Source of the DNA: Parcubacteria group bacterium
GTDB lineage: Bacteria; Patescibacteriota; Minisyncoccia; Moranbacterales; GCA-2747515
NCBI GenBank assembly: GCA_041660065.1
Contig: JBAZXC010000001.1
Coordinates: forward strand, 264,535 to 328,534
Direction: 5' to 3'
Length of the DNA: 64,000 nucleotides
This document shows positions 55,271-55,680 of the stretch, in pieces. A program made the position numbers and the translations under genes. Numbering within the stretch: position 1 is the stretch's first letter; every line of letters starts with the position of its first letter. The notes beneath the pieces were generated by a model that was not told where the DNA came from, did no database searches, and saw nothing but the letters and a program-made list of their open reading frames with translations.

Positions 55271-55680
55271 GTCATCTTGAACCCTGCCTACCGGCAGGCA
55301 GGTCGTTTCAGGATCTCAATCACAATGACCCTGACAAATCCCTCCATTCATTATTGAATTCTGTTATTAAATTAATTTTCCATTCCCTATGCCAATTTTT
55401 CAACTGCTTTTCACGCCTCAATGCACTGAATACATCTTCCGTTTGTTCGTAATATACTAATTTATCTATATTATATTTTTTTGTGAATCCTTCTGCTAAT
55501 TTATTTTTGTGTTCATATATCCTTTTCTGTAAATTTCCCGTTACGCCAATATAAAAAACTTTATTATGTTGATTCGTAAGAATATAAACACAATATTGTT
55601 TCATAGCTATATATGCTCTACACTACTATATTTGAGATCCTGAAACGACCTGCCTGCCGGTAGGCAGGGTTCAGGATGAC
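55271..55680. mobile_element. ~410-bp cassette bounded by ~47-bp inverted repeats (GTCATCTTGAACCCTGCCTACCGGCAGGCAGGTCGTTTCAGGATCTC and its near-perfect reverse complement) carrying a GIY-YIG ORF
   Basis: The reverse complement of 55279..55317 equals 55634..55672 exactly; the outer arms differ by 1 nt. Confidence 0.55.
55320..55604 (-). CDS. GIY-YIG nuclease (UPF0213/YhbQ-like, 94 aa)
   Basis: VYILTNQHNKVFYIGVTGNLQKRIYEH GIY-YIG motif; paralogous to the ORF inside the 16S insertion. Confidence 0.75.
   Translation of the reverse strand: MKQYCVYILTNQHNKVFYIGVTGNLQKRIYEHKNKLAEGFTKKYNIDKLVYYEQTEDVFSALRREKQLKNWHREWKINLITEFNNEWRDLSGSL

Follow-up and report, generated by a model that had tools for sequence, protein, structure and literature searches.

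The hairpin-gene-hairpin cassette described here lies upstream of serS in a 64,000-nt stretch of a Moranbacterales genome (contig JBAZXC010000001.1, positions 264,535 to 328,534; hereafter the window), and its closest described relatives are a superfamily of tagged hairpin repeats and the small endonuclease that recognizes some of them. Di Nocera et al. defined the CGTC-tagged repetitive extragenic palindromes (REPs) in 2013 as units having a CGTC or TGTC tag, an 8-9-bp stem beginning with AT, a 4-5-nt loop and a short tail; they occur mostly as head-to-head dimers in five phyla, include dRS3 of Neisseria and RPE-4/6 of Rickettsia, and "apparently lack a dedicated transposase" (PMC3733652). 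Chenal et al. (Nat Commun 2025) extended dRS3 to the 28-nt NTS and reported that ssnA, coding for a 94-residue single-domain GIY-YIG protein (CDD cd10448), is spatially tied to such hairpins across phyla, with 42% of ssnA homologues flanked on both sides by matches to a degenerate pattern termed SRM (PMC11893778). Neisseria SsnA and three homologues were shown to bind the hairpin only as single-stranded DNA and to cleave at a point a few nucleotides to its 5' side; cleavage depended most on the three nucleotides preceding the palindrome and binding most on the C that follows it, loop identity was dispensable and loop extensions were tolerated in vitro, and mutation of Y6, Y17 and E64 abolished cleavage (PMC11893778). 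SsnA also reduced transformation by NTS-containing DNA, and the NTS-ssnA-NTS layout was likened by its discoverers to an insertion sequence, with the idea of mobility raised (PMC11893778). Judged by sequence comparison, the cassette in the window is very probably a Moranbacteria member of this family, that is, a gene for an SsnA-like site-specific single-stranded DNA endonuclease bracketed by its hairpin repeats in the NTS-ssnA-NTS layout. The parts of the cassette are as follows.

55270-55319, plus strand: serS-side hairpin unit (SRM, or TGTC-tagged REP), with tag TGTC at 55270-55273, stem 55274-55281 paired with 55307-55314, and C at 55315
55283-55302, no strand assigned: nested GC palindrome of 20 nt, CCTGCCTRCCGGYAGGCAGG = CCTGCCTACCGGCAGGCAGG, in the loop of the serS-side unit, with a twin at 55649-55668
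55320-55604, minus strand: ssn-like gene, an intact open reading frame (ORF) for a 94-residue single-domain GIY-YIG nuclease
55632-55681, minus strand: gene-upstream hairpin unit, with tag TGTC at 55681-55678, a perfect 8-bp outer stem, and the nested palindrome at 55649-55668

A preliminary description of this DNA had reported a perfect inverted repeat around a 94-residue GIY-YIG ORF upstream of serS, with an internal palindrome in each arm, and both observations held. Positions 55279-55317 are the exact reverse complement of 55634-55672 (39 nt), and the full repeat, 55270-55319 with 55632-55681, extends to 50 nt with one mismatch at 55277 (T against C), beyond which the next 14 outward positions are unpaired. 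The 21-mer and 20-mer cores of the repeat found no match in 100 dinucleotide-preserving shuffles of the window, and the inverted repeat with its nuclease ORF is real and non-random. The long stem that had been taken as the primary structure gave way to a different picture: each arm, when folded in single-stranded form, has an inner GC stem enclosed in an outer one of 8 bp, ATCCTGAA/TTCAGGAT (folding energies of -8.1 and -12.5 kcal/mol), so that an arm is a hairpin unit in its own right and not merely half of one long stem. Both arms carry a TGTC tag, an 8-bp stem starting with AT and a C directly after the stem, the outer stem on the serS side having a single T.G mismatch at 55277. At Rfam gathering thresholds, 16S ribosomal RNA (rRNA) alone was matched in the window, and thus the hairpins are not a curated RNA family; ARAGORN found no tRNA there.

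The protein itself matched Pfam PF01541 (GIY-YIG, E=5.8e-18, residues 3-78) with no second domain, and an identical protein (P0001) was present in the homology database, with 6508 homologues at E<=0.001; a look-up by exact protein gave no entry. Identical proteins are recorded from a 469-kb contig. In alignment A2 Y7, Y18, R28 and E65 were invariant and H32 nearly so (90% or more), and Y7, Y18 and E65 were invariant in alignment A3 also. These last three are one residue off Y6, Y17 and E64 of Neisseria SsnA, a match inferred from equal length and offset and not from a direct alignment. A clade-specific C-terminal motif, NW.R.WK..LI...N..W.DL, is present in the window protein and common to all Ssn-like sequences. 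The AlphaFold model consists of one compact, bare GIY-YIG domain (pLDDT 93), whose nearest folds in the PDB were UPF0213 (1ZG2), Slx1 and UvrC-N (best entries 1ZG2, 7CQ2 and 4XLG; 22-26% identity); a sequence search of the PDB returned no match, and the NCBIfam matches were all below threshold, a group I intron endonuclease model reaching 24.9 bits against a cutoff of 56. With the stand-alone UPF0213-type proteins and the Slx1 nuclease domain the cassette protein thus appears, from the model, to share the GIY-YIG core fold, whereas a C-terminal helix motif and an association with hairpin repeats set the Ssn clade apart, and sequence identity is low, as just given. At loci L321, L331 and L344, proteins with 60-62% identity to the window protein have the Neisseria NTS core GTCATTCCCGCG[C/A]A[G/A]GCGGGAATC on either side, a further homologue (L313, 64% identical) has the core on its upstream side only, and the window protein also matched, at E=1.8e-21, an ORF in L191 that is flanked by exact matches to the published NTS pattern.

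The association of gene and hairpin was followed through other genomes in two ways. Three groups of contigs were fetched by exact protein, and in them the homologue lies in unrelated surroundings: in the serS leader (L002-L005, 96% identical), between murC and murB in a complete 1.29-Mb Moraniibacteriota genome (L006-L011, 80%), and beside dapB and PIN genes (L012-L019, 69%). In all three contexts the gene is bracketed by inverted TGTCATCCTGA(A/G)C-loop-G(T/A)TTCAGGATC units with tags pointing outward, the unit being TGTCATCCTGAAC-TT-GTTTCAGGATCT, and the downstream unit either adjoins the stop codon or shares bases with it. In addition, 80 metagenome loci sampled protein-first (56-78% identical) were searched over 150 nt per side for a YGTC-tagged hairpin in the expected orientation; tagged hairpins were found on both sides in 48 of the 72 evaluable loci and on at least one side in 56. 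At distances above 300 nt from the gene the background was 0.015 per 150 nt per strand. The stems vary from locus to locus with compensating changes on both sides (ATCCTGAA, ATGCTGAA, ACCCTGAA, ATTCCGAA, ATTCCCGC and others), while neither the tag nor the C after the stem changes. The general form over 357 units runs Y-GTC, 8-bp stem, 5-nt loop, C and then Y (276 units combine the 8-bp stem with a 5-nt loop), with nothing conserved upstream of the tag; this agrees with the description of the CGTC REPs (PMC3733652) and with the positions critical for SsnA binding and cleavage (PMC11893778). It is because homologous genes carry such hairpins on both sides, some with the canonical Neisseria NTS core, that the cassette is assigned to the Ssn family.

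The reciprocal scan began with the hairpin. The pattern GTCATCCTGA-N(5-35)-TCAGGATC, searched in one genome per species, found at least 120 loci in groups of the candidate phyla radiation, Sphingomonadaceae, Bacteroidota, Treponema, Gastranaerophilales, Gammaproteobacteria and more, most units having a head-to-head partner 20-90 nt away. A gene homologue lay within the 8-kb locus in only 3 of the 120 hairpin loci listed; this co-occurrence was considered as evidence against the association of hairpin and gene and rejected, hairpins far outnumbering genes. In their TGTC tag, 8-bp stem beginning with AT, 4-5-nt loop of the base units and short tail beginning with C, as in their occurrence in several copies, their predominantly head-to-head arrangement and their spread over many phyla, these repeats resemble the CGTC REPs; the 25-nt loops of the two cassette arms, due to the nested palindrome, are the sole deviation. 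The CGTC REPs were described with no associated enzyme gene (PMC3733652), whereas here, as in PMC11893778, the repeats bracket a GIY-YIG gene.

With the Ssn/NTS system the locus shares a 94-residue single-domain GIY-YIG protein, equivalent catalytic residues, bracketing inverted tagged hairpins, further hairpins scattered in the genome and often paired as doublets, and close homologues flanked by the canonical NTS core. It differs in its host, which belongs to the candidate phyla radiation (the published survey drew on RefSeq reference genomes, and this group is not mentioned in its main text; PMC11893778), and in its stem, which is ATCCTGAA here as compared with ATTCCCGC. Several points weigh against the assignment. 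Membership in the Ssn family would follow from architecture and transitive homology. The published SRM pattern, HGTCWYN(0-2)YYVSBRHN(0-5)WNVSBRGN(0-2)RNCYNB, which a family member should match at least once per side within 500 bp, fits neither of the arms, nor does it fit the base unit of the CCTGAA type, TGTCATCCTGAACTTGTTTCAGGATCT. The same pattern does match four other hairpins of the window, but it has at least one match in only 10 of 80 loci of the clade. We read the mismatch as a limit of a hand-built search pattern and not of the biology, as the tag, the stem and the following C, which are the functionally important features, are all present. It is also not certain that the arms are still good substrates, because the serS-side stem has its mismatch and both arms have 25-nt loops. 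Lastly, the role in the host may be restriction of transforming DNA, genome dynamics or purely selfish persistence.

A second GIY-YIG ORF of the window (42782-43042, minus strand, 86 residues) lies inside the 16S gene, which spans 1863 nt as matched by a model of 1533 nt, and the preliminary description had regarded the two ORFs as paralogues and saw a hint of a common insertion mechanism. Their kinship stands at the level of the GIY-YIG superfamily (32% identity over 66 residues; pairwise E=1e-6, phmmer E=7e-5), but by sequence the 16S ORF is of a different subfamily and looks closer to the UPF0213/Slx1 type than to Ssn. A homing-endonuclease-like gene targeting palindromic sites, with an insertion mechanism shared by both ORFs, would account for two small GIY-YIG proteins that each have flanking inverted repeats. 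It is nevertheless very improbable for the cassette. The 16S ORF lacks the Ssn C-terminal motif, its own inverted repeat (42770-43081; 23 nt, ATGCCACACCATTCAACTTTCAT, 91% complementary) is untagged and unrelated to the tagged hairpins, and the hairpin scan of the window found no tagged hairpin adjacent to it, so the proposed common mechanism is not supported. Furthermore, the 94-residue protein has no DNA-binding domain of the sort that homing endonucleases need, its location is intergenic, and its characterized relative leaves double-stranded DNA uncut (PMC11893778). As a separate observation, the complement of the 16S rRNA 5' end at 43115-43134 reads TCATCCTGAGCCAGGATCAA, which resembles the CCTGA-stem unit over 11 nt, probably by coincidence.

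The palindrome nested in both flanking hairpins distinguishes this cassette from the Ssn/NTS loci described. The two components also occur apart. The GC palindrome lies outside any outer unit at 2886-2905 and 63669-63688 of the window, at 9103 of L012 and at 1139 of L325, and the outer unit lacks the palindrome in the gene-less doublet at 63856-63935 and where it flanks homologous genes in L003, L006 and L012, so that an arm is a composite of a hairpin repeat and a second, independent palindromic repeat lodged in the loop. L003, whose protein is 96% identical and is encoded at the orthologous serS position, has the palindrome in the serS-side arm only. In the window both arms have it, together with an adjacent derived TT-to-TC change, and since that change is common to both arms the palindrome was probably copied from one arm to the other and not inserted twice independently. 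The preliminary description had offered, as one possibility, a nuclease gene invaded by palindromes resembling miniature inverted-repeat transposable elements (MITEs). This is apt for the GC palindrome, which entered the arms and has solo copies elsewhere; it does not describe the outer repeats, which accompany the nuclease family across phyla in the majority of evaluable loci and correspond to the recognition site of the Neisseria enzyme (PMC11893778).

Some further observations concern these palindromes. A decayed serS-side unit in L264 still holds a decayed palindrome. The solo palindrome at 2886 is just upstream of a minus-strand ORF with a histidine-triad-like HFHFHIYP motif, and the stretch at 2180-2840, which overlaps that ORF, has the lowest GC content of the window (23-26%). 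Tagged hairpins with another stem-loop in the loop recur in many lineages, among them L271, L293, L296 and L302 at ssn flanks, L024, L025, L027 and L131, and position 20516 of the window, and the inner stem-loop is sometimes a unit of the same tagged family. Such loops may be sites where insertion is favoured.

The serS leaders of relatives were compared by pairwise alignment with cheap gap extension. In the window serS occupies 53901-55220 (minus strand), with its start 99 nt downstream of the cassette. L262, whose SerS is 90% identical, has the same flanks, with the upstream terminator-like hairpin GAAGCTTGCCGAAAAACAATTCAGTCAAGCTTC, the TTTGCTACCAT motif and serS as in the window, and lacks the cassette; the empty site that the preliminary description had proposed to look for therefore exists. 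Aligned with L003, the gap in L262 spans from TGTC tag to opposite tag, give or take a few AT-rich bases. L260 (SerS 95% identical) and L261 also have no cassette, their upstream region being rearranged, L263 has a solo serS-side unit, and the unit in L264 is the decayed one. The cassette is thus gained or lost as a unit between close relatives, as far as these alignments indicate. The target-site duplication that had also been proposed for inspection was absent at all four junction pairs, and the near-identical strain sets around two other cassettes (L006-L011 and L012-L019) showed no hairpin-related insertions or deletions. The ORF has a GC content of 28.4%, within the lowest 1% of 285-nt windows, as compared with 46% for serS, 49% for dprA and 47% for the upstream ORF. 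The empty site and the low GC content fit recent acquisition and gain or loss of the unit, and do not indicate the responsible enzyme.

The position in the leader bears on a regulatory explanation, in which the hairpins would be a terminator or attenuator of serS and the nuclease gene would merely lie between them. The motif TTTGCTACCAT(T/G) is found upstream of serS in every relative examined (L003 and L262-L265), at about 55700-55730 (minus strand) in the window, and the cassette sits in the leader about 25 nt downstream of it. This explanation is scarcely plausible, however: the region yielded no site resembling a terminator and no more promoter-like sites than expected by chance, no T-run follows the hairpins, the hairpins flank homologues at loci unrelated to serS, and L262 manages without them. 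A reading of TTTGCTACCAT as the serS promoter, with the cassette just past the start site, was also tried and was not supported, the sigma-70 consensus scan being not above chance. Between this motif and serS, L263 (about 2780-2890), L264 and L265 have a short conserved ORF, MTKI(V/I)(L/R)(E/H)NLY(Y/F)(F/L)YKRS..., absent from the window, L003 and L262, which could be a leader peptide or a small gene.

Counting the mismatched cassette arm with nine perfect-stem hairpins, the window holds at least ten tagged hairpins where 0.19 would be expected. There are three gene-less doublets and the gene-bearing pair, the latter being the one gene-bearing copy in 64 kb. The hairpins outside the cassette are the following.

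63856-63935, units at 63856-63881 (plus strand) and 63910-63935 (minus strand): gene-less head-to-head doublet of CCTGAA-type units, REPIN/MITE-like, consisting of GTCATCCTGAACTTGTTTCAGGATCT, a 28-nt spacer and the inverted copy
15774-15854, no strand assigned: head-to-head doublet of NTS-like units TGTCATTCCCGTGAAAACGGGAATC, matching the published SRM pattern
20515-20624, no strand assigned: second copy of the 15774-15854 doublet, with the same spacer, its left unit having a 26-nt loop
49663-49690, minus strand: solo NTS-like tagged hairpin TGTCATTCCCGTGAAAACGGGAATCCAG
41120-41146, minus strand: solo tagged hairpin GTCATTCCTGCGTAGGCAGGAATC, about 140 nt past the 3' end of the 16S gene

The base units of the first doublet, like those in relatives, are TGTC, ATCCTGAA, a 5-nt loop, TTCAGGAT and C, and the spacer common to the second and third doublets is ACTATCAATATTTGTCGTA(T/A)AATAATTC(T/C)GGATT. 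The intergenic stretch at 63590-63850 is dense in small repeats and looks like a mosaic of repeat families: AAAAATCCCTCCGCCC occurs twice, the GC palindrome stands alone at 63669, and near 63742 there is a weak tagged hairpin, TGTCATTGCAAGGAACGAAGCAATCT.

These repeats and the empty site bring in the question of mobility. The preliminary description had suggested a minimal element carrying its own nuclease, and of this the compact hairpin-gene-hairpin form, the presence/absence in L262 and the unrelated contexts were borne out, while self-mobilization is hypothetical. In its full form the proposal would be that of an autonomous mobile element, in which the nuclease excises or copies the segment between the hairpins and the gene-less doublets are non-autonomous derivatives, as in the RAYT/REPIN systems. 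It is compatible with identity as Ssn and adds to it a claim about function, and we consider it possible but rather doubtful. Besides the polymorphism at one intergenic site (empty from tag to tag in L262, without the cassette in L260, solo in L263 and decayed in L264) and the spread over unrelated genomic contexts, it draws on the contrast in GC content between the ORF and its neighbours, on multi-copy doublets with a common spacer, on the recurrence of hairpins nested in other hairpins' loops, on the lack of a known dedicated transposase for the CGTC REPs (PMC3733652) and on the view of the Ssn authors that the layout is like an insertion sequence (PMC11893778). However, GIY-YIG nucleases are hydrolytic, with no known strand-transfer or ligation activity; the window has a single gene-bearing copy; there is no target-site duplication, nor a conserved target motif outside the tag; the strain sets with identical cassettes have no insertion or deletion at the hairpins; and presence/absence can also be explained by deletion or recombination between repeats. 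An ordinary insertion sequence or autonomous transposon differs from the cassette on the two counts of target-site duplication and gene-bearing copies, presence/absence polymorphism notwithstanding. Closer in form are the REP/RAYT REPtrons, the REPINs and IS200/IS605 (PMC3733652, PMC11893778), which likewise have an enzyme gene between inverted hairpin repeats, gene-less doublets, a hairpin recognized in single-stranded DNA (as would be the case here by analogy) and no target-site duplication. In REPtrons and IS200/IS605 the enzyme is an HUH/Y1 tyrosine transposase and the tag GTAG, whereas here the enzyme is a hydrolytic GIY-YIG nuclease and the tag YGTC. An unlikely version of mobility would have Ssn cut at the two outward tags in single-stranded DNA and host functions finish the reaction, so that the system spreads both itself and the gene-less doublets, with loops as preferred landing sites. 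Such a preference would account for both the hairpins and the GC palindrome that are nested in loops.

If the cassette is, as preferred here, an Ssn-family gene with its hairpin repeats, a mechanism can be proposed by analogy with the Neisseria enzyme. In single-stranded DNA, such as incoming transforming DNA, the lagging-strand template or repair intermediates, each unit would fold into an 8-bp hairpin; the 94-residue protein would bind it through the sequence and shape of the stem and the C after the stem, and would cleave only the tagged strand, a few nucleotides from the YGTC tag on its 5' side. With the tags pointing outward, the predicted cuts fall just outside the cassette, one per strand, and the other tagged hairpins of the genome (at least ten such units in the window) would be further sites of the same kind. 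The 20-nt GC palindrome would have landed in a hairpin loop, where the Neisseria enzyme tolerates extensions, and then been copied to the other arm. More speculatively, the system might limit recombination of incoming DNA in an organism with dprA next door. This neighbour is given here for completeness.

52741-53859: dprA, next after serS and about 1.5 kb from the ssn-like gene

DprA loads RecA on incoming single-stranded DNA. As dprA adjoins serS also in the cassette-less L260 and L261, its proximity to the ssn-like gene is probably coincidental.

In summary, the host group and the hairpin variant are new; the kind of element is not, the system having been published in 2025. Relevant to the mobility of the cassette, but not decisive, are the vacant site in L262, the difference in base composition and the palindromes nested in the loops. 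If mobilization by Ssn were true, the CGTC-type REPs, among them dRS3 and RPE, would have in Ssn the mobilizing enzyme long sought for them, and a GIY-YIG-based route of transposition would exist. For annotation, small genes labelled "GIY-YIG nuclease family protein" that are bracketed by YGTC-tagged hairpins can be regarded as Ssn-like. The CCTGAA-stem class of hairpin is found in many phyla (the 120 or more loci of the genome scan) and is missed by the published search pattern, so surveys of the system probably undercount it. It is into the candidate phyla radiation, whose members have very small genomes and are believed to rely on taking up DNA, that the Ssn/hairpin-repeat system very probably extends.

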